Assembly: GCF_022846255.1 (NCBI RefSeq)
Contig: NZ_AP025682.1
Direction: 5' to 3' (one strand)
Source of the DNA: Escherichia coli
Lineage (GTDB): Bacteria; Pseudomonadota; Gammaproteobacteria; Enterobacterales; Enterobacteriaceae
DNA: 64,000 nt
Shown here: positions 4,257 through 48,149 of the stretch, one piece after another
Position numbering within the stretch: position 1 is the stretch's first letter
How the letters are laid out: every line of letters starts with the position of its first letter
Made by a program: the position numbers and the translations under genes
Notes under the pieces: model-generated
The model's database searches: none
The model's input: only the letters and a program-made list of their open reading frames with translations
What the model was told of the DNA's origin: nothing

Positions 4257-4994
4257 ATGAGTTTTCAATTTTGCAGGCGGAAGTTTTATTTCCTCCTGGC
4301 GCTGGCCTTACCGGGCTACGCCGCCGTCCATCCCGTGCAACATAGCGCGCGGGAACAAGTCAACGCCCAGGTGCTGAATGCCGCCAGCCAGCAGATTGAA
4401 TCGCTAGCGCAGCAGCGGCAGTGGCATGACTATCGCTACACCTTTAAGGTCTACATTCCCTCGCAGATTTCGACTGCCGCGCCCTGCGCTACGGCCCCCG
4501 GCGTCACGCTGACTTCGCCTGCGGAAATCGCTCTCAACCGGATGAACTTCACCGTCAGTTGCCCGCAAAGCTGGCAGATGAACGTCGCGGTGCGCCCGGA
4601 TGTTCTGGTACCGGTGGTGATGGCAAAGTCACTGGTTGCCCGCGATACGCCGCTCACGGCAAATGATGTGGAGCTGAAGCCCTACAACGTCAGCGCCCAG
4701 CGTCGCGATGTGTTGATGGAGCTTGATGACGCGATTGGTTTCAGCAGTAAACACGCGTTGCAGCCGGGCAGGCCAATCACCAAAGAAGAACTGATATCTC
4801 CGGTGCTGGTCGAGCGCGATCAACCGGTGATGATTGTTTACCAGAGCGCGGGGATCAGCGCCTCGCTGCCCGGCGTGGCGCTGAAAAATGGTCGTAAGGG
4901 CGAGATGGTGAAAGTGCGTAACGCCAGCAGCCAGCGGGTCATCAGCGCGATGGTGGCAGAAAGCGGCGTGGTGACGACGGTAAGCGCGGAGTAA
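4257..4994 (+). CDS. lfgA: Flagellar P-ring assembly chaperone FlgA
   Basis: ORF from 4236 (GTG) with likely ATG start at 4257; signal-peptide-like N-terminus; divergent from flgB as in flg loci; C-terminal SAF-like region. Confidence 0.75.
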   Translation: MSFQFCRRKFYFLLALALPGYAAVHPVQHSAREQVNAQVLNAASQQIESLAQQRQWHDYRYTFKVYIPSQISTAAPCATAPGVTLTSPAEIALNRMNFTVSCPQSWQMNVAVRPDVLVPVVMAKSLVARDTPLTANDVELKPYNVSAQRRDVLMELDDAIGFSSKHALQPGRPITKEELISPVLVERDQPVMIVYQSAGISASLPGVALKNGRKGEMVKVRNASSQRVISAMVAESGVVTTVSAE

Positions 4995-30552: not shown

Positions 30553-31770
30553 AGAGTCAGGGTAAGACTACGAAAGCCCGCTCCCAGCAAGGACTGACGC
30601 CAGGTAGTTTCTGTCCATGGCTGCTTTTCGCATCTTACGTCTTAACCCTGCCTTGAATACATTATCATTCGTTAAAATATTAATAGCGATGTGCCGTATC
30701 CCTGAAAATAATTCTGCTGCATTTCCTCTTCTTATTTTGCAGTCGTCTTCATTCATTACCACGTCCAGACGCCAGTGCAGCTTATTCTCCACGTGCCAGT
30801 GGTTTCGGATTGCTGTGGCGAACTTCTCTGCGGTTAAATCAGCAGAACTGATATAATATCTGACCGTCATTTCTGGCTCTTTCTTTTGTTCTGCTATTAT
30901 TGACCGAAAGGAGACTGCCACGCATAATTTCTTCAGACCTTTCCATTCAAACATGAAATCAATAAGTTCATCAGGGACATCGCAAACAATGTGAAGACGG
31001 ATTTCTTCTCTGCCGTGACTTTTTTCACTAATTGCGTAACTGTCATGCTCTGGATTATTTAATTCTTTCAGTGGGAATTTTTCCTCAAAGGCTTTATTAA
31101 GCCGCCCCTGATTTCCTTTTACAGCGAATAAATAATCACCGCCCTGTTTTTGTATCTTCTCTGCGATATCTTTCTGGCAACCCATCGCATCAGTTGTGAT
31201 AATTTTTCCTTTAATATCCAACATGTTAAGAAGTTCATGGATAGCTGTGATCTCATTGGATTTCTCATCCGTCCTGATCTGTCCGATGACCAGACTGTGC
31301 ATTGTTGAGAACGCACTAATGACATGAATCGCTCCCCTGCGGCGACTCTTGTCATAAGAATGCCGGAGCGTTTTTCCATCAATTGCAATAACGTCTTTAT
31401 CATCTGAAGAATGGCAGTCACGCATCCAGTTAATAAAGCACTCGTGAAATTTTGCAGGACTGATACAGGATACAACTCTGGCAATGGTATCGTGAACAGG
31501 AATACCATTTTCAAAATCACCATATTGCTTCAAAAAATCGAGATGTGTTTCCCCAAAATCCTCTATATCTTCCCAGCCTTCTGCACCAGAAATAACGGCA
31601 CAAATAGTCAACAGTAGAATACCCGATAATTTATGTTCCACTTTCCAGGCTTGTCTGTAATCGGGGATAATAGAAATATGTTCCATCAATTTTTTAAGTT
31701 CCATTTTGTTCTACTTAATTATGTAAGGAGTATTTGATCATGTATACGCAATAAAAAACAGCTTCAGGTA
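30553..31770 (-). mobile_element. H-repeat (H-rpt) element, ISAs1-family, copy A (intact)
   Basis: 1214-bp unit directly repeated at 31767-32985; encodes a 378-aa DDE transposase-like H-repeat-associated protein. Confidence 0.8.
30568..31704 (-). CDS. H-repeat-associated protein / ISAs1-family transposase
   Basis: 378 aa, [27 protein letters not shown]..., resembles the YhhI/YdcC H-rpt protein family. Confidence 0.85.
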
Positions 31771-32985
31771 ACAGGGCAAGATTACGAAAGCCCGCTCCCC
31801 GCAAGGACTGACGCCAGATAGTTTCTGTCCATGGCTGCTTTTCGCATCTTACGTCTTAACCCTGCCTTGAATACCTTATCATTCGTCAAAATATTAATAG
31901 CGATGTGCCGTATCCCTGAAAATAATTCTGCTGCATTTCCTCTTCTTATTTTGCAGTCGTCTTCATTCATTACCACGTCCAGACGCCAGTGCAGCTTATT
32001 CTCCACGTGCCAGTGGTTTCGGATTGCTGTGGCGAACTTCTCTGCGGTTAAATCAGCAGAACTGATATAATATCTGACCGTCATTTCTGGCTATTTCTTT
32101 TGTTCTGCTATTATGGACCGAAAGGAGACTGCCACGCATAATTTCTTCAGTCCTTTCCATTCAAACGTGAAATCAATAAGTTCATCAGGGACATCGCAAA
32201 CAATATGAAGACGGATTTCTTCTCTGCCGTGACTTTTTTCACTAATTGCGTAACTGTCATGCTCTGGATTATTCAATTCTTTCAGCGGAAATTTTTCCTC
32301 GAAGGCTTTATTTAGCCGCCCCTGGTTTCCTTTTACAGCGAATAAATAATCACCTCCCTGTTTTTGTATCTTCTCTGCAATATCTTTCTGGCAACCCATC
32401 GCATCAGTTGTGATGATTTTTCCTTTAATATCCAGCATGTTAAGAAGTTCAGGGATAGCTGTAATTTCATTGGATTTCTCATCCGTCCTGATCTGTCCGA
32501 TGACCAGACTGTGCATTGTTGAGAACGCACTAATGACATGAATCGCTCCCCTGCGGCGACTCTTGTCATAAGAATGTCGGAGCGTTTTTCCATCAATTGC
32601 AATAACGTCTTTATCATCTGAAGAATGGCAGTCACGCATCCAGTTAATAAAGCACTCGTGAAATTTTGCAGGACTGATACAGGATACAACTCTGGCAATG
32701 GTATCGTGAACAGGAATACCATTTTCAAAATCACCATATTGCTTCAAAAAATCGAGATGTGTTTCCCCAAAATCCTCTATATCTTCCCAGCCTTCTGCAC
32801 CAGAAATAACGGCACAAATAGTCAACAGTAGAATATCCGATAATTTATGTTCCACTTTCCAGGCTTGTCTGTAATCGGGGATAATAGAAATATGTTCCAT
32901 CAATTTTTTAAGTACCATTTTGTTCTCCTTAATTATGTAAGGAGTATTTGATCATGTATAAGCAATAAAAAACAGCTTCAGGTAA
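31767..32985 (-). mobile_element. H-repeat element copy B (tandem direct repeat of copy A)
   Basis: Near-identical to copy A with a 1214-bp offset, flanking sequence included. Confidence 0.8.
31782..32918 (-). pseudogene. H-repeat-associated transposase gene disrupted by a nonsense mutation
   Basis: GAG to TAG change at 32091-32093 relative to copy A splits the ORF into 275-aa and 100-aa pieces. Confidence 0.8.
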
Positions 32986-33147
32986 TGAGGAATATCTCAA
33001 TTTTTAAACATAAAATGCGAATTATTTAGTACAAAAAAGCAGCGTTACGTGATCTTTCCCTGACTGTGTAGGAAAACAGGTTTCCAAGCCCTTCCGAACC
33101 ATTCATGCCTGCAAACAAAAGCAGCTGCGGCGGCACCGCACTACCAC

Positions 33148-33468
33148 TTACTGTGACGTTATGCGCCCCGGACCACCGGCAGCAAGCGACGCCGCCGCAT
33201 CCTGAACTGCACCAGCCATATCCGAGATCCCTGCTGCTGCAGCGGCAGCCTGCGCAGCAGCTACTGCTGCTTTAACCAGACCTGACGGTTCCGGCAACGC
33301 ACCAAACAGGTCCGCCGCTGCCTGTTCTGCCATCTCCTCGGCGGCACCAGATACATCGGTTACGGCTGAACCTGTGCTCATACCGCCACTTTCGCCAGCT
33401 ATTGGTGGTGTGGTGATGACGGGTCCACCGTTTCCAGCTGGTTTGTTACCCGTAGATACAAAACTCAT
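33148..33468 (-). CDS. Hypothetical Ala/Gly-rich small protein
   Basis: 106-aa ORF, low-complexity composition; coding status uncertain. Confidence 0.3.
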
Positions 33469-33492: not shown

Positions 33493-33864
33493 TTAGAATT
33501 TAGCGCCCGGCTGCCAGAAAAAATAAGAAATAACCCGCCACTGTCCATCTTTATAATGAAAAAAACATGTCAGATTTAAATCCCCCCGCAAATGCCAAAA
33601 CATTTCTTTGATGGGAATATTTCTGAATTCAGTATTCGTTGAGCGATAGGTGTTTTCAATTTCTATATAATACTCACCGACAAATTTATAACGAGGCTTT
33701 ATAAATTCATACGCTGGCTGACCATAGTTATTTAATAGAACATTCTCTTCAACTCCATTATACACACCACTCGCATTCAGATAAGCATGCCCAGGAATAT
33801 CAGACATGCTATTTTTCGCCCCACCCACTATCAAAAAAATTATCACAGCGTATATTAGTTTCAT
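33493..33864 (-). CDS. Small secreted protein, candidate immunity protein for the upstream zincin-like protein
   Basis: N-terminal signal peptide (MKLIYAVIIFLIVGGA); 4-nt overlap with the upstream gene. Confidence 0.5.
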   Translation of the reverse strand: MKLIYAVIIFLIVGGAKNSMSDIPGHAYLNASGVYNGVEENVLLNNYGQPAYEFIKPRYKFVGEYYIEIENTYRSTNTEFRNIPIKEMFWHLRGDLNLTCFFHYKDGQWRVISYFFWQPGAKF

Positions 33865-34601
33865 TTTTTTACGCTTTTCACAAAAAAATTAGAACCCGGA
33901 ACCATTCTATTTAACCGCTCAATGACATTTCTCATATAACGAGAGCGCAGTTCCATACCAATATTCATTAACGCACTGGCGTCCCCGGAGAATGGTGTAG
34001 TTGCTTTATCTGCATCATCACTATAGTATTCATCAGCAAGATATCCAATAATATGCCCAAGCTCGTGAGACAGCCCTATTTGCTCATGGCAAACTTTTGA
34101 TGAGCCAAGACATTTAGCTGCTGCAACTATATCTTTAGAGTCAAGTTCAACGTATCGACTATTCCAGACAATGGAACTCTGTCGAAAACTATTTGGATCA
34201 TCATTATCAATTTTAAACACCACCACATCCCAATACCCATGACGATCAGTCTGAATTATTTCTATTGAGAAAGATAAATCCTTACCATTAAACTTACTGG
34301 CAAACTCAGACTTCCCAGAAACGGATAAAAAAATCTTATTATTCCATGTTTGATTAATGACAAAAATAACTTTCCCATGAAAGGCATTTTTCTCCAAATC
34401 TGTCCAGTCAGTTTTTGCATCCCATCTTTTTATCCAATTATATTTCCATCTCAGCAACAATGAGATTGCACCATTTTCACGGTCAATTCTTAAATCTCCC
34501 CAGGCATCATTGTCCCTGATATATCGTTTATCCAGCATTAAGTCGTCATAAGCATCGTATGCCTGCTGAATAGCTTCATCATGAGAGTCACCCATGTTCA
34601 C
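33861..34601 (-). CDS. Putative zinc metallopeptidase (HExxH zincin), candidate T6SS effector
   Basis: HELGHIIGYLADEY motif; located in the T6SS effector array and paired with a signal-peptide protein. Confidence 0.5.
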   Translation of the reverse strand: MNMGDSHDEAIQQAYDAYDDLMLDKRYIRDNDAWGDLRIDRENGAISLLLRWKYNWIKRWDAKTDWTDLEKNAFHGKVIFVINQTWNNKIFLSVSGKSEFASKFNGKDLSFSIEIIQTDRHGYWDVVVFKIDNDDPNSFRQSSIVWNSRYVELDSKDIVAAAKCLGSSKVCHEQIGLSHELGHIIGYLADEYYSDDADKATTPFSGDASALMNIGMELRSRYMRNVIERLNRMVPGSNFFVKSVKK

Positions 34602-34924: not shown

Positions 34925-35398
34925 CTACTCATCCGTACAACCCAGCCCCCGGCGCTGAACCACTTCACTGGCAAACGTAGCTCCGGTTTTTTTCATTATT
35001 CCTTTTTGTATTTTTTGCAGCGCGGGAAATGAGATTCTCCTGCATGAATCCTCTTCCCATATATCACCAGTTACAGGACTAACTGAAAATAGTCCCCACA
35101 CATCTGTCGCTCCGGCGGAAGGAGAATCATAACCTACCCCAAAACTAAAATACCCAGGATGATACAGGTTACCTTTTTTATCTTTCAGAGAACCGTCAAG
35201 AAAAAACCCAGACAATTCCACATTATATTTTTCATTTTTTAGTGAAAAAACCAATAATGCCTGCGCCTGTATTTCAGTAAGACCTGACTGGTTAACAGTC
35301 GTTAGATCAAACCGCGGCACATTCCTGATAAGAATTTCAGCACAACAATTCACGGACACGACCATGAAAAGCAATACTGATATTAATTTACAGGACAT
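34925..35398 (-). CDS. Secreted protein, candidate immunity protein for the GH73-like effector
   Basis: Signal peptide (MSCKLISVLLFMVVSVNC); overlaps the upstream effector-like gene. Confidence 0.5.
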   Translation of the reverse strand: MSCKLISVLLFMVVSVNCCAEILIRNVPRFDLTTVNQSGLTEIQAQALLVFSLKNEKYNVELSGFFLDGSLKDKKGNLYHPGYFSFGVGYDSPSAGATDVWGLFSVSPVTGDIWEEDSCRRISFPALQKIQKGIMKKTGATFASEVVQRRGLGCTDE

Positions 35399-35853
35399 GT
35401 TATTCTCCGCTTAACCATATTAATCACCCACACTAACTCACTAGCATAACCGGTATGGCCGCCATTACTGTTTTTACCTGAATTAAAACCAGAATCAATC
35501 AATGCCTGCGCAAATTGCTCCGGAGATTTTTTATTTCTGACCGCATTACCAAATCGGATTGCAAAGGACTTTCCGCTAGTTGAAAAAAAGGTATAAGTGG
35601 CAACCCACACTTGATTACTCCCCAGCGGGTGAACCTGTCCTGACTGTAAAGGTGCCGGACCATGCATGGAAAAGTAGTTATTGTATTCTGTCGCGATTCT
35701 ACCCTGCCCGTAAAAGGACTCCTTTGCAGCAAGCCCCAGGATATTTTCCACAGGCACATCAAGTTGCTTAGCGATTAATTCACATTCTTTCAGATATTGC
35801 TGTACAAACCTGACTGCACCAGTGTTATTACAGGCTTTATCATAAGACCCCAT
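35383..35853 (-). CDS. Glucosaminidase (GH73/FlgJ-like) domain protein, candidate T6SS peptidoglycan glycoside hydrolase effector
   Basis: LGLAAKESFYGQGRIATEYNNYFSMHG resembles the FlgJ/GH73 catalytic region; no signal peptide; small (156 aa). Confidence 0.55.
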   Translation of the reverse strand: MGSYDKACNNTGAVRFVQQYLKECELIAKQLDVPVENILGLAAKESFYGQGRIATEYNNYFSMHGPAPLQSGQVHPLGSNQVWVATYTFFSTSGKSFAIRFGNAVRNKKSPEQFAQALIDSGFNSGKNSNGGHTGYASELVWVINMVKRRITCPVN

Positions 35854-35880: not shown

Positions 35881-36651
35881 TTAATGCGGCCGGATATCCA
35901 GCCGCAACGCATCCACATACCGCCCCTCGCTGTTCTGCTGCCAGAACCAGCCCTGCCCCTGCTGCGCCTGCGTCAGCATTTTGTCCGGCCAGCCCGGCCA
36001 CGGCAGGTGGCGCACACCGGGCAGTTCCACTACCGGCACGTCCGGCAGGCCGGTGAGTTCCCGGCTACGCTGCGGTACACGTCGTAAGCCGCGTAGCCAC
36101 TGCGCCCAGCGCGGCCCCGGTCGCCACATCGCCCAGAGCTGGTCTGTCTGCTCCGCCAGTCGACCGCAGCGTTCTGTCTGTGGTGAGACATGAGCTGCCG
36201 TCAACTGCGCCAGCCAGTACAGCCAGCCCTGTGTGTCATCCAGGCTCTCTTCCAGCCATTCCCGCCCGACACGCTGGTAAATCACCAGTGGCCACGGCCT
36301 GCCCGTACTGTCACGCGAGGCGGTCAGGACCCCGGTCAGCCACTCATCGCGCCCGCCAATGGGGAGAAATCCCGGCGACAGCACAAAACTCCACGGCAAT
36401 GGGTGGTGCTCCGGTAGTGCCGTTTTCTCACGTGGTGACAGGTGCATCCAGCCGTCATTTGTTCCGGCCTTCGCAGCATCCGTTCCTTCCGGCAGAACAA
36501 TATGCCGTCCCTGTCCCAGCCACGTTTGCTGGTTCAGCCACGCCTGCCACACCTGCCCTTCGTTCGCGCTCACTCGCCAGCGCACATAGTCCCGCTGGTC
36601 CGGCAGTCTGCCGAACATCGCCGGGGCCGATATCTCTGCCCGGCGCATCAC
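35881..36651 (-). CDS. tagF: T6SS-associated protein TagF (DUF2094 family)
   Basis: N-terminal FGRLPDQRDYVRWR resembles the TagF GKLPxxGDFVxR signature; Trp-rich; follows tssM as in SPI-6-type clusters. Confidence 0.6.
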   Translation of the reverse strand: MMRRAEISAPAMFGRLPDQRDYVRWRVSANEGQVWQAWLNQQTWLGQGRHIVLPEGTDAAKAGTNDGWMHLSPREKTALPEHHPLPWSFVLSPGFLPIGGRDEWLTGVLTASRDSTGRPWPLVIYQRVGREWLEESLDDTQGWLYWLAQLTAAHVSPQTERCGRLAEQTDQLWAMWRPGPRWAQWLRGLRRVPQRSRELTGLPDVPVVELPGVRHLPWPGWPDKMLTQAQQGQGWFWQQNSEGRYVDALRLDIRPH

Positions 36652-36836
36652 AACGTCCTTACCGGACAGGTGAAGTTTTTCAGCAATTCCCGGTAATACA
36701 GAACATAATTCTTCATTTCAATAATAAAGTCAGATATCAGGATTAATTTTCTTCCACAGGAATCAGAGCATTTATAATAAAATCGCTCAGGCATCCCCCC
36801 AACAAAGAGAACAGGAATCAGCTTCCAATAAAATTG

Positions 36837-37313
36837 TTAATTCAGTTCCCAGAACCAGATTTCCTTGCAGCTAAAATAGCAATGTGAATGACATATAGCA
36901 CCTGTGGTAGAAGGCTCAATAAGATCTATATGACCGCCACCGTAACCCGTAATTTTCCAGAAAAAGACCACTCCTCTTTTATTACTGGTGTCTGTTTTAA
37001 ATTTTTCTGAGTCACACCAGATAACTGGTCTTCCAAAAACATCAGCTCGGGAAAGCTGATCTGCCAGTAATTTCGCACCGGTTTCTATTTTCTTCCCTTT
37101 CCAGTCACCACTTTTGATCGTCAGTCGCCCGTTAAAGCTGACGCCTGATTTAATCAGCGCCAGACTCATACGTGTGGCACAGGTATTTACATAACCAGCA
37201 TTTTGCTGTTGCAGTGCTTCATAGTTATAACCCACTTCACTGTACAAAACATCACCATCAATCTGAACTGATGAGTAATGGTTTTTTTTAAGTGTGAAAA
37301 ATGAAGGTTTCAT
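36837..37313 (-). CDS. Tae4-like type VI amidase effector (papain-like Cys/His peptidoglycan amidase)
   Basis: AGYVNTCATRMSLAL (Cys) and GGGHIDLIEP (His) resemble the Tae4 catalytic motifs as I recall them; 158 aa, no signal peptide. Confidence 0.55.
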   Translation of the reverse strand: MKPSFFTLKKNHYSSVQIDGDVLYSEVGYNYEALQQQNAGYVNTCATRMSLALIKSGVSFNGRLTIKSGDWKGKKIETGAKLLADQLSRADVFGRPVIWCDSEKFKTDTSNKRGVVFFWKITGYGGGHIDLIEPSTTGAICHSHCYFSCKEIWFWELN

Positions 37314-38005
37314 TTATTATTTCCTTTATCACAGGAGTGTTTACTTAGTGCCTCAATAATAATATTTGCAGCCCGTTCATTCAGTTTATCTGACGTTTTT
37401 TTTCTGAAATACCAGTAAATAATCTCATCCAGTGTAACTGTTTTAATCGTTTTATAATCGCACCATGTTTTTCTTTCCGTGGCATCTTCTATACCCAAAA
37501 GATAGATTTTCGCATTAAGCCTATCCTGCCTGTTATCTGACTGCCAGAAGCGGAAAAAATCATCTCCGTTCAGATCGAACGCGCCAGAGGTCAGGTGTGA
37601 AACAGATGAATGCCGGGGAGATTTTTTTTCCGGTGATGCCATATCCGGGCAGGGAAACAGCCTGACCATCGCTTGTTCAATCAGAGTTGAAGCTCGCATA
37701 TTCATATCGTTAACCGACTGCTGATTAAGATATGTCAGTACCGATGAATAAAGTTCTATTTCATTAATCTTATTATATCCACACCAGGTTTTACTTTCTG
37801 TCGCATCACTCACACCAAGGACATACATCAGAACATTTTCTTTTTCCTGTGACGTTCCACGAGCATAAAATGACAAAAATTCCTGCGCACTGAGATTAAT
37901 ATAATCGGGGTCAATAGTTCCTGTGTTTTTTCTGATATCAGCAAAAACATTTCCTGACATGGCATATAACAAAAAAATAATAAAAAAACGCGTATATTGT
38001 TGCAT
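37310..38005 (-). CDS. Secreted tandem-repeat protein, candidate immunity protein (two ~100-aa repeats each with paired Cys)
   Basis: Signal peptide; internal duplication (VLGVSDATESKTWCGYNKI... / LLGIEDATERKTWCDYKTI...). Confidence 0.5.
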   Translation of the reverse strand: MQQYTRFFIIFLLYAMSGNVFADIRKNTGTIDPDYINLSAQEFLSFYARGTSQEKENVLMYVLGVSDATESKTWCGYNKINEIELYSSVLTYLNQQSVNDMNMRASTLIEQAMVRLFPCPDMASPEKKSPRHSSVSHLTSGAFDLNGDDFFRFWQSDNRQDRLNAKIYLLGIEDATERKTWCDYKTIKTVTLDEIIYWYFRKKTSDKLNERAANIIIEALSKHSCDKGNNK

Positions 38006-38251
38006 ATCATGCTTCCTGAATCACGGTAGTAGGATGGTCGCTATAACGTCGGTTTAAGAAAGTTTATAGTTTTGTTGCGTCGTTGCCCTGCCATCTCAGT
38101 ATATAAGTGACATTAATGGTGCCTTTTTGCTCACCTGGTGTAACGGCCTGTTTTAGCATACAACTCCACGTCAAGACATCCGTGAATGCAGCCTTTAGCA
38201 TAGTCACATGGGTCCGGTAGTCTGCCAACGATACTGCCGCCGCCCGGCGTA

Positions 38252-41200
38252 TCACAGCGCTCGCTCCGGGCAGGCGAAGCGTTGTAATAGTCCGCGATCC
38301 ACTGGGTCAAAATCCCGTCCGGCGGTGATTTCCAGTATCACCCGCCGCCCGTCAAAGCTGTACTCCACCTGCTGTGTTCCCCGTACCGCCGTTTCTTGCG
38401 CTTTTCCCGCATCCAGCAGGTGAAACAGCGCCCACGGTCCATTAGTCAGCAGCGTCGAGGTGTCCTGGCGGATGCGCGGGCTGGCGGTTATTTCCGCCAT
38501 TGAGCCGTTGCGCGGACCCGGCCAGTTCACTTTCAGCGGCCTGACCGGGCCGTGAGCGTAACGCAGTACCTGGCCGTCAATGTCAATCACCAGTTCGGTG
38601 ATGGCCGGGTCCATATCCACGACGCGGACCTGCATCGCCCATGAGAACTTTTTCCCTCCGTCGCCGTTAAAAAACACGCTGCGGATCTGTTTCGCCTCCT
38701 GAAACGGCGTCAGGTCTGGACCCTGTAAGGTCATGTTGCCTTCGGTCGGTTTGTAGCGCCACGGGTTGCTGGCGGTATCCGCCAGTGGGGCCAGTTGCTT
38801 CGTCCAGAAGGCATCCAGCACGCCGCCGCTGGCAAAGATACGGTTAAAATCGTCCGCGCTGACCTCCTGCGGGCTGTCGGTGAAGGGGTAGCGCCCGTCG
38901 ATGGCGTCGCGGCACTCATCACCGATCACCGCCTCCATCTGCGCGTTCAGCACTTCACCGGTGCCGGCGTTGATTTTTCGCGTTCCCTGCTGCGTGAGAT
39001 CCAGCAGAATATTTTTCAGCGGCGCGGGCAGTTTTGCCGCCTCCAGTTGCAGTTTATCCGCCGCAGAAATGCGCCCCGGCAGAGTGCTCGCAGCCAGCGC
39101 ACTGTCGGCAATGGTGAGCTGGGTGTAGTACTCATTGAGCATCGTCAGCAGCGAATTTAATTGCGGCACGCCGCCGCCCTGCCCGCTGTCCGTCTGCCCG
39201 GAAACCACTTCCCGCAGGGCGGCGAAACGGTCATCCACCAGTGATTTTTCCAGCCGCTCTTCCGGGTGAATGTCCTGCAACAGCTTCGCCGTCTGCACCG
39301 CTTTTCCCGCATTGCCGGAGAGCCGGTCCTGCGCGCGCTGGGCCATCTGCTTTTGTCTGGCCTGCGCATTCAGCGGCGGCACCAGCGTGGTCTGCTCCAC
39401 CACCGCTTTACTCAGGCGCATCAGCGGGGAATCCGGCGAGGCCAGAGTACGCAGCACCTGAAGGTCATACGCTAGTCCAGGGCTACCGTCCTCCCCGGCG
39501 CTGTTGATGCTGTGAATGCTTGCCAGAAAATCCTGCCATCGGCGAGCATATTCAGCCAGGTACAGACGACGTACCTCACGGGTAACCGGGAGTTCCTGCC
39601 CCGGCAACTGGCTCATCACAATATCAGTCGTTTTTTTTTGCGCACTTTCCCGGCCCATCACCCAGGCGTCGTCCGCTGATGCGGCGGCGACAAACTCCGA
39701 CAGCCGTTTGTCGAACAGTTCCCGGTAGCCTTCGCGGGTGAAGATGCCGGGCACGCCCCTGTCCAGCGGCGCGCCATCCGTGCGGACAAAAACTGTTCCC
39801 GCATCCGCGCCCACAGCGCGAACCAGCGAAAACTCCTGCGGTGCTTCGCTCTCCATGGAAGCCAGGGCTCGAGTGTAGATACGCTCAGTGCTGGTATGGC
39901 CGTCAAGGAAGGCCCGCGCCTGGCGGATCAGCCCCTCATCTTTTTCCCAGGGCGAATGCACCACGCGGCTGCCGTCAAACAGGGCGTCAATATGCTCCAG
40001 CACGGCTGCGCGACCGCCAAACTCCGCTACGCTGTCGCGGTTGTCCAGATCGTTCAGCACCCAGGCGTGGATCTCCGCCGCGTTGTATTTGTCCTCGTGG
40101 TCCTTATCGAGGTTCAGCAGCAGATAAACATGCAGGGCGTCATAGGCGGCTTTGCTGTCCTGACGCGCAATCGCATCTGAAAGCACGTATTCCATTCGTT
40201 TCACCAGCGGAGGGAGCAGTAGCTGGTCCAGCAGGCGGTCATACAGGGATGCGACACTCTCCATCACCGGCGGGACGCTGTAAAGACCATAACGCCAGGC
40301 CAGCGGCGGCGAGTCCGGGTCCAGCCCCGGCCAGGCAGAGAGCGCCCGCGCCTGGTTCAGCAGGGCCGGAACAGGCTGCATAGCAGGTTTTCCGGTATAG
40401 GCTTTGACATCACCATCCAGTTGGGTCGTCCGGCTGGCGATTTCATTCAGATAACCGCTGTTACCCTGCTGGCTACCCTGCATTCCCTGCCACAACCAGA
40501 AAGCCAGCGCCAATACCAGCAGATGCCCGCCGGTACGCAGCAGGCGATAACGCCAGGCCCATTGAAGATTCGGCTCCACCAGGTGCGCTTCGCGGAAGAT
40601 AAACTGCGTCAGTAGATCGTGCAGGAAATAGCTGCGGTTGCCGTCCGGCAGGGTATGGGATGGGGAATCCGCCTTCCCTTTGATCGCCCGGACAAAACGC
40701 TGCCAGATGCCCGTCTGATCGGCCACCGCGTCTGCCTGCGCCTGCGCGGCACTGGTGAAAAATACGCCGCGCAGGGTGTTGTTAAGCTGGGTAGCATCAA
40801 ATTTTGAATCGAGGAAAATCTGTTCAATAGCTTCCAGCAGCGGCGCACCCAGCGCGGCAAATTCACGCGGGAAGCGGTAGAGCCGCTGACGGCTTTTAAG
40901 GTCATATTCTTCCTGCAACCGGGTATCCAGCCCCTGATCCAGCCGCTGTGTCAGGTTTGCCAGTTCCCGGCCACAGAGCGCATGCAGCGACTGCGGATCG
41001 CTGGCGTGACGCCTGCGGCTGTAAGGCAGGGTGAAGCCCCAGACCTGGGCTCGCAGGTGACTGGTCAACCCACGGAAATACTCCGTAAAGCCCGGCAGCA
41101 GATCCATCTTGGTGACAACCAGATAGACCGGAAAACGAATGCCCAGCGTCTCCCGCAGTTCCGCCAGCCGCGCACGCAGAGCTGCACAGGCAGCCAGCCG

Positions 41201-42118
41201 TTCCGCCGGGGACTGCGCGGTCAGATCCGCCACGTTCAGCGTCAGGATCACGCCGTTGAGCGGTGCGCCGGGGCGGTGTTTACGCAGCAGTCCCAGAAAC
41301 CCCTGCCACTCCCCGGCGTTGCGCTGGGTCGCGCTGATTTCGCCACCGTCATCGTGGCGAGCATAGCGCCCGGCGGTGTCAATAAGCACTGCTTCGTTGG
41401 TAAACCACCAGTCGCAGTGCAGCGTGCCGCCGCCCGGCACGGTGAGAATATGCGCGGTTTGCTCCATCTGCTCCGCCAGCGGAAACTGTAGCCCGGTGTT
41501 AAGCAGCGCGGTGGTTTTACCATCGCCGGGGCTGCCGATAACCATAAACCACGGCAGCTCGTACAGAAAACGCTTTCCTTCCAGGACTTTTCGCCAGCCA
41601 GGAAGATCCACACGCAGTTGTTTCAGTTGCCGGATGGCGCGGTTGACAATATGGCTGACGGTACGCAGGTCGGCTTTAATTTCCCCCTCCACCGGTACGT
41701 CTTCCCCACGCGGATGCAGGAAACGGCGCAGCAGTTGTTCATCCAGACGCAGCGCCCGCCACAGCCGGTACAGGCCATACAGCGCATAAGTCAGCAGGAT
41801 CAGACCGATAAGCGTCAGACGCAGCCACAGCGGCGCAAATGGATGAACATCACCGAGGGACAGCAGGGGTGAAACAAAACCGATGACCAGGCACAGAACC
41901 GTCACGCCAATGATGCTCATCGACCAGTTAACCAGCCACAGTGCGAGGAACATCAGTAACAGAACGATGGTGACTACCCGACTTCCCACAGACGCGAGCG
42001 GATGCACGGTGTCAAACGCCACCAGCGGCCCGATAAACCAGACCAGCAGCGCCAGTACCGCCACGCCGACAACAGCCAGCGCGCGGCGGGAAAACAGCAG
42101 ACTGAGAAATTTTTGCAT
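38252..42118 (-). CDS. tssM: T6SS membrane complex protein TssM (IcmF family)
   Basis: 1288 aa; three N-terminal TM helices, Walker A GSPGDGKTT, IcmF-like periplasmic region. Confidence 0.9.
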   Translation of the reverse strand: MQKFLSLLFSRRALAVVGVAVLALLVWFIGPLVAFDTVHPLASVGSRVVTIVLLLMFLALWLVNWSMSIIGVTVLCLVIGFVSPLLSLGDVHPFAPLWLRLTLIGLILLTYALYGLYRLWRALRLDEQLLRRFLHPRGEDVPVEGEIKADLRTVSHIVNRAIRQLKQLRVDLPGWRKVLEGKRFLYELPWFMVIGSPGDGKTTALLNTGLQFPLAEQMEQTAHILTVPGGGTLHCDWWFTNEAVLIDTAGRYARHDDGGEISATQRNAGEWQGFLGLLRKHRPGAPLNGVILTLNVADLTAQSPAERLAACAALRARLAELRETLGIRFPVYLVVTKMDLLPGFTEYFRGLTSHLRAQVWGFTLPYSRRRHASDPQSLHALCGRELANLTQRLDQGLDTRLQEEYDLKSRQRLYRFPREFAALGAPLLEAIEQIFLDSKFDATQLNNTLRGVFFTSAAQAQADAVADQTGIWQRFVRAIKGKADSPSHTLPDGNRSYFLHDLLTQFIFREAHLVEPNLQWAWRYRLLRTGGHLLVLALAFWLWQGMQGSQQGNSGYLNEIASRTTQLDGDVKAYTGKPAMQPVPALLNQARALSAWPGLDPDSPPLAWRYGLYSVPPVMESVASLYDRLLDQLLLPPLVKRMEYVLSDAIARQDSKAAYDALHVYLLLNLDKDHEDKYNAAEIHAWVLNDLDNRDSVAEFGGRAAVLEHIDALFDGSRVVHSPWEKDEGLIRQARAFLDGHTSTERIYTRALASMESEAPQEFSLVRAVGADAGTVFVRTDGAPLDRGVPGIFTREGYRELFDKRLSEFVAAASADDAWVMGRESAQKKTTDIVMSQLPGQELPVTREVRRLYLAEYARRWQDFLASIHSINSAGEDGSPGLAYDLQVLRTLASPDSPLMRLSKAVVEQTTLVPPLNAQARQKQMAQRAQDRLSGNAGKAVQTAKLLQDIHPEERLEKSLVDDRFAALREVVSGQTDSGQGGGVPQLNSLLTMLNEYYTQLTIADSALAASTLPGRISAADKLQLEAAKLPAPLKNILLDLTQQGTRKINAGTGEVLNAQMEAVIGDECRDAIDGRYPFTDSPQEVSADDFNRIFASGGVLDAFWTKQLAPLADTASNPWRYKPTEGNMTLQGPDLTPFQEAKQIRSVFFNGDGGKKFSWAMQVRVVDMDPAITELVIDIDGQVLRYAHGPVRPLKVNWPGPRNGSMAEITASPRIRQDTSTLLTNGPWALFHLLDAGKAQETAVRGTQQVEYSFDGRRVILEITAGRDFDPVDRGLLQRFACPERAL

Positions 42119-42445: not shown

Positions 42446-42901
42446 TCAAAATTCTCTGGATAGAATAATATAGCCATTGAATCTTACGGAACACTCATTT
42501 TCATTAATAAGGCCGGATGCAATAAAAACATCTTTCCCTCTGTCATTGTTAATATAGGTATATTTTGCCACAATAGACTTGGCATGATTTTCATAGTAGC
42601 TATCAAAATACGATTTTTCATCTAACATTGCCTTCTTATTTCTGGCTTTGTCCTTCTCATAATCAATCTTAGCCAGAGACTCTGCATAAAACTTAGACAC
42701 AGGAGAAACATCAAGAACTTCTACCCTTGTTTTATCTCTTAAAATAGTAGAAGAATTTATATTCAAATCACTTTTCATTGCATCAAATAACGACAACTCT
42801 ATTGAGGCTCCAACCGTAGCGCAACCATCATTTTGTGCATATGAAATTGCAGGTATGCCAGCTAACAGGCAGATTATTACCTTGAACATATTAGTCCTCA
42901 A
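42446..42901 (-). CDS. Secreted protein, candidate immunity protein for the L,D-transpeptidase-like effector
   Basis: Signal peptide (MFKVIICLLAGIPAISYA); overlaps the upstream effector gene. Confidence 0.5.
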   Translation of the reverse strand: MRTNMFKVIICLLAGIPAISYAQNDGCATVGASIELSLFDAMKSDLNINSSTILRDKTRVEVLDVSPVSKFYAESLAKIDYEKDKARNKKAMLDEKSYFDSYYENHAKSIVAKYTYINNDRGKDVFIASGLINENECSVRFNGYIILSREF

Positions 42902-43259
42902 CCACTAATATTTTATCAGTACTGGCAGCAATAACCTTGCGATAAGGTAAATCCAGAATTATACAGCCATCAGAGGCTTCTCCTGGATGGGCTGAACTCT
43001 CTCCGTGTATCATGAAACCGTCACGCCCGCACATTTGATTTTCGGGGTAAGGCGTGAGCCTCATCGTCCATGCTCTTGTTCTGGCATGAAAAAATGCAAG
43101 TCCAATTGTATATGTACCTCTTGGCAATGGTCCCTTATCTCTTACACACTCATTAACAGAGTCATCTTTAAAACCCGGTCTGCCAGAATATCTGGCATTG
43201 AACTGATAGCTACCATTTAAATAAAATGAACGTGCATTAATTTTGTATACCCAAGGCAT
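42891..43259 (-). CDS. YkuD/L,D-transpeptidase-fold protein, Tlde1-like candidate T6SS effector
   Basis: FMIHGESSAHPGEASDGCIIL matches the YkuD catalytic H...SxGC motif; between tssL and tssM. Confidence 0.6.
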   Translation of the reverse strand: MPWVYKINARSFYLNGSYQFNARYSGRPGFKDDSVNECVRDKGPLPRGTYTIGLAFFHARTRAWTMRLTPYPENQMCGRDGFMIHGESSAHPGEASDGCIILDLPYRKVIAASTDKILVVED

Positions 43260-47276: not shown

Positions 47277-47729
47277 CTATTTACATGTCACAGATACCGA
47301 TGACTCTCCTGGTACCCGCTGCCCCGGCAAAGAAGATGCCTGGCACTGTGTCGCCAATGCAGGGACCGGTTGTGATAACCAAACCTGTCCATGGTTATAA
47401 ATACAGGAAACCCAGTAACGTTCACTATTCTGATTACTGGCCATTGTGGTATCCCATATTTGCCTGGTTTCACCCTTTATTGTCTCTGTCTCTGGTTTTA
47501 GATCCACCCGATTTTCAGGTTTTCCCTGCGACATCCCTACCCCGTCCAACCACAGACGGGGTTCATAGCGGGAAGATCTCTGCCACGATGCAGATATATC
47601 TGGCTCCAGTACTGTTGTTGAGGATTTTATATTGATAAACACGGGGCAACTGACTTCCCACGCAGTAACAAATTGTGAATAAAACAACATAAAACCCAAC
47701 AACAGAGAAAAAATAAAACGTGTCCCCAT
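47277..47729 (-). CDS. Secreted Cys-containing protein, candidate immunity protein
   Basis: Signal peptide (MGTRFIFSLLLGFMLFYSQFVTA); follows a small effector-like ORF. Confidence 0.45.
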   Translation of the reverse strand: MGTRFIFSLLLGFMLFYSQFVTAWEVSCPVFINIKSSTTVLEPDISASWQRSSRYEPRLWLDGVGMSQGKPENRVDLKPETETIKGETRQIWDTTMASNQNSERYWVSCIYNHGQVWLSQPVPALATQCQASSLPGQRVPGESSVSVTCK

Positions 47730-47741
47730 TGAATCTATCCT

Positions 47742-48149
47742 CTACTCAATAATATAAAAAGCTTCCGCATTATTACTGGCATCAGGATATGTTCCATCGC
47801 TGCGCATTCCACCTTTTCGGGAAATAGGGCGTGCAGAGACTTTCGTGGTTTTACCTGTCCACTGGTCCATAACATAAATATACTGACTATCCTGTTCCAG
47901 ATAGAAAGCGGCATGCTTATGCTCATTCTGCCTCGAGGGATACTTTCCGTTAACAAAAGTGGCAATTGCTGTTCCTCTGGGGATCGATTTATCCCCAAAA
48001 ACCTTTCGCCCCTGCTTCCAGGCTCCAGTATTCCCCACATGTGCATATACCTGAACTAAGAACACACATTCCTTTCTGTCTCCTGCCCCCGCCATTCCCA
48101 CCATGTCAGTGCCCTGCAATGAATCTACCAGTCCATAAACATATGCCAT
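47742..48149 (-). CDS. Small putative T6SS effector (unassigned family) between tssC and hcp
   Basis: 135 aa, no signal peptide, single Cys (ECVFLV) and His cluster (NEHKH); sits where SPI-6-type clusters carry tae/tai cassettes. Confidence 0.4.
   Translation of the reverse strand: MAYVYGLVDSLQGTDMVGMAGAGDRKECVFLVQVYAHVGNTGAWKQGRKVFGDKSIPRGTAIATFVNGKYPSRQNEHKHAAFYLEQDSQYIYVMDQWTGKTTKVSARPISRKGGMRSDGTYPDASNNAEAFYIIE

Follow-up and report, generated by a model that had tools for sequence, protein, structure and literature searches.

A two-domain Rap1a-type immunity protein encoded upstream of a Tae4-family amidase in a type VI secretion cluster of Escherichia coli

In the prototype of the Rap1a family, protection from a toxin is provided by a symmetric dimer of one small subunit; what, then, is the task of each domain when two of them are joined in a single chain and have drifted apart? 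This question is raised by a locus of Escherichia coli at positions 36837 to 38005 of a 64,000-nucleotide stretch of contig NZ_AP025682.1 (RefSeq assembly GCF_022846255.1; the whole stretch is called the window hereafter). Two open reading frames (ORFs) had been picked out there by an earlier reading of the sequence alone, and both are present on the minus strand, at 38005..37310 (231 amino acids, aa) and 37313..36837 (158 aa). They almost certainly form an effector-immunity pair of the Ssp1/Rap1a family, associated with a type VI secretion system (T6SS). Much is known about this family and RefSeq already names the two genes, so that the locus itself adds little: it is a toxin-immunity pair of a known kind, already annotated, and the fused double domain of the immunity protein is its only non-standard feature. 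As for that feature, the overall reading towards which we lean is that the protein would be a single-chain, asymmetric pseudo-dimer, with the C-terminal domain blocking the cognate amidase.

The wider interest of the locus lies in the fact that an obligate-homodimer immunity protein has been turned several times, independently, into a single two-domain chain and that, in the enterobacterial lineage, the roles seem to have been split between the halves, one face being conserved and the other hypervariable. It would represent a natural test of how the change from a homodimer to a fused heterodimer alters the stoichiometry and the specificity of toxin neutralisation.

The effector and its immunity gene

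According to the ORF list, the minus strand reads tssM, the 231-aa ORF, the 158-aa ORF and tagF, in this order:

42118..38252, minus strand: tssM, 1288 aa
38012..38017, minus strand: AGGAAG, a putative Shine-Dalgarno-like motif read from the sequence, 6 nt before the immunity ATG
37310..38005, minus strand: immunity gene, 231 aa, two Rap1a domains; RefSeq name Rap1a/Tai family immunity protein
36837..37313, minus strand: effector gene, 158 aa, Tae4-family (Ssp1-type) amidase; RefSeq name T6SS effector amidase Tae4 family protein
36651..35881, minus strand: tagF

The 231-aa ORF ends with AAATGA, and the ATG of tae4 sits inside this end, with a 4-nt stop/start overlap (ATGA) which suggests that translation of the immunity gene may be coupled to that of the toxin. 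RefSeq names both genes on DNA that is 99.8% identical. NCBIfam holds no family for either the immunity protein or the amidase, although the Prokaryotic Genome Annotation Pipeline (PGAP) names both, and a promoter/terminator scan of positions 36500-38400 returned a number of sites not above that of shuffled sequences.

The 158-aa protein, in which Cys and His motifs resembling those of Tae4 amidases had been noticed, does belong to this family. A profile search could have placed it outside the Tae enzymes; instead, it was assigned to Pfam Tae4 (PF14113, E 1.1e-15, model positions 1-125 of 125) and it matches Ssp1 of Serratia marcescens (PDB 4BI3) with E 1.7e-57 over residues 1-157, with 91 of the 157 aligned residues identical (58%). 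Specifically, Cys45, His128 and Asp130 align with the catalytic Cys50, His133 and Asp135 of Ssp1, a papain/CHAP-like triad, while Cys141 and Cys145, predicted to form a bond, align with the Cys146-Cys150 disulfide that shapes the active site of Ssp1. Compared with Ssp1, the alpha1-alpha2 loop of the E. coli protein is shorter by five residues; those lost include Asp16, Tyr17 and Ser18, which are in contact with Rap1a in the Serratia complex. Ssp1 and the Tae4 enzymes are DL-endopeptidases cutting the gamma-D-Glu-mDAP (gamma-D-glutamyl-meso-diaminopimelic acid) bond (PMC3852654), and by homology to them the 158-aa amidase would be expected to cut the same bond of peptidoglycan. Its N-terminus, MKPSFFTLKKNHYSS, lacks a hydrophobic stretch, the protein has no signal peptide, and its gene lies in a T6SS cluster beside an immunity gene; secretion would presumably be carried out by the T6SS.

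The closest known system is the Ssp1-Rap1a pair of Serratia marcescens (PDB 4BI3, 3ZFI, 4BI8; English 2012, Srikannathasan 2013). The E. coli locus has in common with it an effector of 58% identity, with catalytic triad and disulfide, a C-domain fold at a template modelling (TM) score of 0.95 with its Cys pair, an immunity gene directly upstream of the effector and inside a T6SS cluster, and an immunity protein that, from the look of its N-terminus, would be a periplasmic Sec substrate here as well. In contrast, the Serratia protein is a homodimer of one ~100-aa subunit, whereas here a single 231-aa chain carries two diverged Rap1a domains, 32% identical. Furthermore, no rap1b-like gene follows the effector in E. 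coli, and at the Rap1a/Ssp1 contacts Gln84, Glu94 and Arg119 of Serratia are changed to Lys, Trp and His, respectively, in the E. coli pair. The canonical Tae4-Tai4 pairs of Enterobacter cloacae and S. Typhimurium (Zhang 2013, Benz 2013) share the effector superfamily and the bond specificity; their Tai4 acts as a dimer within a heterotetramer, in which both Tai4 subunits contact one effector, and its fold (Rap2a/Tai4 type) differs from that of the Rap1a domains described here. In fact, neither domain has a PDB sequence match to EcTai4, STTai4 or Rap2a at E <= 10.

Two diverged halves of the immunity protein

The sequence-only reading had described the upstream product as a secreted protein of immunity type, made of a tandem internal repeat with a Cys pair in each copy, and this description holds, with secretion as a prediction. 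BLASTP aligns the two halves with 32% identity over 77 aa (E 1e-17), and their Smith-Waterman score of 142 stands far above the background of 2000 shuffles (25.3 +/- 4.5, maximum 49, z = 26). Pfam Rap1a (PF18602), a periplasmic immunity type, is found twice, at residues 49-119 (E 1e-10) and 154-223 (E 3e-9). The Cys pairs are C75/C119 and C182/C225, both aligned with Cys78-Cys122, the structural disulfide of Rap1a (PMC3852654); W181 and C182 are almost invariant in the family alignment. The protein can be divided as follows:

37940..38005, minus strand: putative Sec-type signal peptide, codons 1-22, MQQYTRFFIIFLLYAMSGNVFA, with predicted cleavage after VFA and before D
37643..37939, minus strand: N-terminal Rap1a domain, aa 23-121, with Cys75/Cys119; dimer-interface residues kept, equivalent of the effector-blocking face hypervariable
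37607..37642, minus strand: inter-domain linker, aa 122-133, DMASPEKKSPRH, in the place of the second copy's signal peptide
37313..37606, minus strand: C-terminal Rap1a domain, aa 134-231, with Cys182/Cys225; closest to Serratia Rap1a and predicted blocker of the cognate amidase

The signal peptide was judged by eye from its typical n/h/c regions and the VFA|D site, and the AlphaFold predicted local distance difference test (pLDDT) is ~60 over it. It would serve both domains, as the second has no signal peptide of its own, and residues 134-145 (SVSHLTSGAFDL) match the mature N-terminus of Rap1a. The linker has a pLDDT of 71, a mean identity of 37% among orthologues and a ratio of non-synonymous to synonymous substitution rates (dN/dS) of ~2, based on small counts. 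Between two E. coli alleles, dN/dS is 0.06 and 0.12 for the two domains, which indicates purifying selection.

A trivial explanation would be that the 231-aa ORF is a pseudogene, or consists of two immunity genes joined by a frameshift of sequencing or assembly, and the assembly of strain E04 does split the region into two shorter Rap1a coding sequences (CDSs). Nevertheless, 10 complete E. coli genomes have the region, and all of them but E04 (9, of which 8 at >=99% identity) carry the frame as one Rap1a CDS. Enterobacter and metagenomic contigs contain homologues of 229-232 aa at 47-58% identity, and homologues annotated as longer, 260-305 aa, occur in E. coli, Citrobacter and Salmonella. The second domain, moreover, is without a signal peptide, and selection is purifying on both domains. 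An artefact of fusion, for which we see hardly any probability, is ruled out by this conserved fused frame.

The two halves do not resemble known structures to the same extent. Against the Rap1a structures (PDB 3ZFI/4BI8), the C domain gives E 2e-25 with ~47% identity, while the best PDB sequence match of the N domain is Agrobacterium Tai4, with E 2e-7. An AlphaFold2 model, built on an alignment of 134 sequences, has a mean pLDDT of 88.4 and a predicted TM score (pTM) of 0.83, floppy signal peptide included, and both halves are predicted to be all-helical with pLDDT above 90. The modelled C domain superposes on 4BI8_A with TM 0.95 and a root-mean-square deviation (rmsd) of 0.9 A over 94 columns, that is, on the five-helix Rap1a fold. 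Foldseek searches of the model returned significant matches limited to Rap1a and to Agrobacterium Tai4; the latter, from the Agrobacterium tumefaciens Tae4-Tai4 pair (PDB 6IJE/6IJF), has a Rap1a-type fold, with TM 0.71-0.75 (target-normalised) to the model, and is a single-domain homodimer about 22-24% identical.

As regards the arrangement of the two domains, a pTM of 0.83 despite ~30 disordered residues implies that both were modelled as one rigid body. The models in the AlphaFold database (AFDB) of Salmonella homologues, 49% identical, superpose over both domains with TM 0.84-0.88 and an rmsd of 1.6 A over 171 columns, and even for very distant tandem proteins the TM is still about 0.56-0.63, over about 216 columns. 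The Rap1a dimer is stable and symmetric, and the complex of Rap1a with Ssp1 is a 2:2 heterotetramer with one effector on each flank (PMC3852654); the published interface and contact residues were mapped onto the N and C domains by alignment. Of nine dimer-interface residues, eight are kept by the N domain and six by the C domain, the retention in N (8/9) being well above that of the remainder of the domain (26/88, Fisher p = 0.0008). The interface is asymmetric: Rap1a E59 and E113 are Glu in the N domain, but Leu and Ile in the C domain. The two Rap1a domains are thus likely, on the basis of the model, to fold together as an intramolecular pseudo-dimer.

The faces that would meet the effector have followed different paths. 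In Rap1a, helix alpha4 and the alpha4-alpha5 loop block the active site of Ssp1 (PMC3852654). Of the 12 Ssp1-contact residues, the C domain keeps four (Thr-Val-Thr and Glu194), with three further conservative changes, and the N domain keeps two. Among seven orthologues, nine positions of this face have a pairwise identity of 63% in the C domain, against 59% for the whole domain, while in the N domain the same positions fall to 20%, against 57% for the whole domain, a value as low being reached by 0 of 20,000 random sets of positions. Indirect signs that the immunity protein would bind and block the amidase are these conserved contacts of the C domain and the linkage of its gene to tae4. We incline, by a slight preponderance, to the view that only the C domain would block the cognate effector.

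The prototype would suggest a different outcome, in which each domain binds one cognate Tae4, in a 1:2 complex like Rap1a2-Ssp1_2, and the fusion only fixes the stoichiometry. In Rap1a, one effector is indeed bound per subunit (PMC3852654), and recently duplicated tandems, such as P0010 (N and C domains 65% identical), are probably still symmetric. In the E. coli protein, however, the two faces differ at 11 of the 12 contact-equivalent positions (NK.NEIE..S...T in N, KT.KTVT..E...W in C), a difference at nearly all contact positions that makes a symmetric 1:2 complex less likely, and the face conserved among orthologues is that of the C domain only. For this protein, we regard symmetric function as quite improbable.

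In the asymmetric pseudo-dimer that we favour, the immunity protein would be translated first and exported by Sec, while the T6SS would inject the amidase into the periplasm of a rival, where the gamma-D-Glu-mDAP bond would be cut. The C domain, which keeps the Rap1a surface that plugs the active site of Ssp1, would act as the cognate blocker. The N domain would serve mainly as the other half of the dimer, with its own version of that surface having drifted or diversified.

A diversified face could also mean that the protein is bispecific, with the C face taking the cognate Tae4 and the N face another Ssp1-type allele, from non-kin or from a second module, and hence with a broader protection, as the sequence-only reading had proposed. 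The sequences would agree at least as well with a one-chain form of the obligate Rap1a homodimer. In favour of bispecificity, no patch of the protein varies more than the N face, within an otherwise constrained domain, as expected of an arms-race surface; in some E. coli, a single cluster contains two diverged tandem-Rap1a/Tae4 modules; unfused duplicated Rap1a genes occur; and an effector-less, orphan tandem Rap1a gene lies beside Tlde1 at the homologous locus L044, matching the orphan Rap1a homologue reported for Salmonella pathogenicity island 6 (SPI-6), for which a role in protection from foreign effectors has been put forward (bioRxiv 10.1101/2020.02.18.954545). On the other hand, a six-frame scan of the window with hidden Markov models found no second Tae4 or Rap1a gene that could serve as partner of the N domain, N groups with N and C with C across the clade, no N domain resembles the C domain of another module, and the residues that block the Ssp1 active site are lost from the N face. 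Bispecificity therefore seems unlikely to us, although more than a marginal case; if true, the repeated fusion of Rap1a would be a general route to an evolvable spare binding site, with self-protection retained.

Some observations weigh against the asymmetric pseudo-dimer with a single blocking face. The hypervariable N face is explained equally well by diversifying selection for a second specificity and by a loss of binding, and the N domain is strongly constrained (1 non-synonymous versus 4 synonymous changes in the only recent comparison) and is therefore not a decaying spacer. The pseudo-dimer geometry would follow from the pTM, the conservation of interface residues and the agreement between models rather than from a superposition on the crystal dimer. 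In addition, Affinibrenneria salicis carries two adjacent, unfused Rap1a genes, 59% identical and each with a signal peptide, followed by tae4; duplication without fusion is thus also selected, which a pure single-chain-dimer rationale fails to explain. Finally, vgrG is truncated in the window, so that it is uncertain whether this strain delivers the toxin.

Gene order and recurrence of the fusion

The position of the immunity gene upstream of the effector had been taken as an inverted, unusual order. In canonical Tae4-Tai4 pairs the effector gene does come before the immunity gene (STM0277, then STM0278). Within the Ssp1/Rap1a subclass, a survey of one genome per species was carried out by scanning for the Rap1a motif LGV[LME]D[AT]TEG and recovered 34 loci; the motif derives from an 18-domain alignment and is biased to single-domain genes, so that the survey informs on gene order and not on the frequency of tandems. 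In 23 of the 34 loci, the Rap1a gene or genes are followed directly by an Ssp1-type Tae4 gene, mostly overlapping; in none is such a gene found upstream. The order is consequently immunity-first in 23/23 effector-linked loci, with 0 reversed, and the locus tags of Serratia, where rap1a (SMA2260) is followed by ssp1 (SMA2261) and rap1b (SMA2262), imply the same (PMC3533786). The term 'inverted' is valid only relative to the canonical pairs, and does not apply inside this subclass.

The other 11 of the 34 loci have no full-length Tae4 gene and look like orphan immunity genes. Two Rheinheimera loci (L023 and L027, about 4261-4305) are a clear case of an effector deleted with its immunity gene retained: the orphan Rap1a gene is followed by just the first 14-15 codons of tae4.

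The tandem homologues show the same order. In every one examined that has a linked Tae4 gene, including three tandem lineages with an Ssp1-type tae4, this gene follows immediately downstream; L044 is the sole examined tandem locus without it, an orphan. At L044 the tandem gene occupies the slot between tssL and tssM, next to Tlde1. For S. Typhimurium 14028s, Sibinelli-Sousa et al. (bioRxiv 10.1101/2020.02.18.954545) presented STM14_0331 of SPI-6 as an orphan Tai4 immunity gene resembling Rap1a, without mention of a double domain; unlike the locus studied here, the Salmonella-type copy is an orphan without Tae4 and sits in another slot. The Salmonella tandem Rap1a proteins are ~49% identical to the E. 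coli protein, and their AFDB models share its two-domain packing. The fusion may also explain the persistence of orphan tandem Rap1a genes in SPI-6.

How widespread is the fused form? A scan of 1.84 billion cluster representatives returned 143 Rap1a relatives (50%-identity clusters), 12 of them with a double domain (about 8%) and the remaining ones single-domain proteins of roughly 120-145 aa. In the enterobacterial clade (E. coli, Enterobacter, Citrobacter and Salmonella), each N domain is nearest to other N domains and each C domain to other C domains, with N-versus-C identity of 28-38%, which points to one old fusion. Different patterns are found elsewhere: in P0010 the N and C domains are mutual nearest neighbours, while in P0024 (52% identity between N and C) each domain is closest to single-domain proteins. 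Counted over separate lineages, the Rap1a fusion is seen at least three or four times. In the searchable literature, no description of a tandem or fused Rap1a or T6SS immunity protein was found.

Two tandem modules can be present in a single T6SS-1 cluster. In three E. coli contigs (L041-L043, 6001-7277 and 11548-12716), one module (261 aa plus 164 aa) lies between tssL and tssM and the other, the one studied here, after tssM; the immunity proteins of the two modules are about 52% identical. In E. coli E04 (L006, 2110-2804), the tandem gene is annotated as Rap1a CDSs of 189 and 414 nt and tae4 is shortened to 411 nt; frameshifts, due to sequencing error or to pseudogenisation, are probably responsible for this annotation.

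The cassette and the rest of the T6SS cluster

The pair makes up a horizontally acquired cassette of the Ssp1/Rap1a subclass, placed between tssM and tagF of T6SS-1. The 1.4-kb segment occurs in 10 of 5426 complete E. coli genomes, at 95-99.9% identity and on the chromosome every time, and its guanine-cytosine fraction is 0.37-0.42, versus about 0.6 in the flanking tssM and tagF. In 104 other E. coli genomes, with flanks ~91% identical, the tssM and tagF matches are directly adjacent, with no module between them; in VCSW5, the one module-less strain inspected, the two genes overlap by 4 nt. The ~90-bp junction of tssM end and tagF start, single in strains without the cassette, is found here as a degenerate copy on each side of it, as obtained by blastn alignment against VCSW5:

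38199..38289, no strand assigned: tssM-side copy of the degenerate tssM-end/tagF-start junction
36585..36675, no strand assigned: tagF-side copy of the degenerate tssM-end/tagF-start junction

These flanking copies suggest that recombination with a related cluster brought in the cassette. Around it, strain 2014C-3338 has the T6SS-1 locus beside yafV, ivy and fadE, which contains tssB/C/E/F/H/J/K/L/M, hcp, tagF/J/K, vgrG and rhs.

At the vgrG end of the cluster, the window carries on the minus strand a truncated vgrG (33032-33468), followed by two copies of an ISAs1/ISEc1 transposase gene (32091-32918 and 30568-31704), one of them truncated; yafV and ivy come next. About the first 146 codons of vgrG remain, with a frame break near codon 100; 2014C-3338 has at the same place vgrG, a DcrB-like gene and an Rhs toxin with its immunity gene, here replaced by the ISAs1 copies. 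Unless a vgrG is encoded elsewhere, this strain may have a T6SS-1 that cannot fire, and the immunity function would still be useful to the strain even without firing.

Other pairs in the cluster have the layout of toxin cargo. Between tagF and vgrG, a 246-aa HExxH protein (HELGHIIG; 33861-34601, minus strand) is encoded by a gene overlapping that of a 123-aa signal-peptide protein (33493-33864, minus strand). Both are 'hypothetical' in RefSeq, and the 246-aa protein has no significant Pfam/NCBIfam match, the best being Peptidase_M64 (E 0.016); their place in the cluster suggests a metallopeptidase effector, so far uncharacterised, with its immunity partner. Another pair consists of a glucosaminidase-domain protein weakly similar to FlgJ (35383-35853, minus strand) and, after it, a 157-aa secreted protein (34925-35398, minus strand), named 'Tgi2PP family T6SS immunity protein' by RefSeq in VCSW5. 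Strain 2014C-3338 lacks this pair, and the region downstream of tagF is thus also a variable cargo slot. Between tssL and tssM, a Tlde1-domain protein (42891-43259, minus strand) and its downstream partner (42446-42901, minus strand) form a putative effector/immunity pair, and so do a BPSL0067-family protein (47742-48149, minus strand) and a STY0301-family protein (47277-47729, minus strand) between tssC and hcp.

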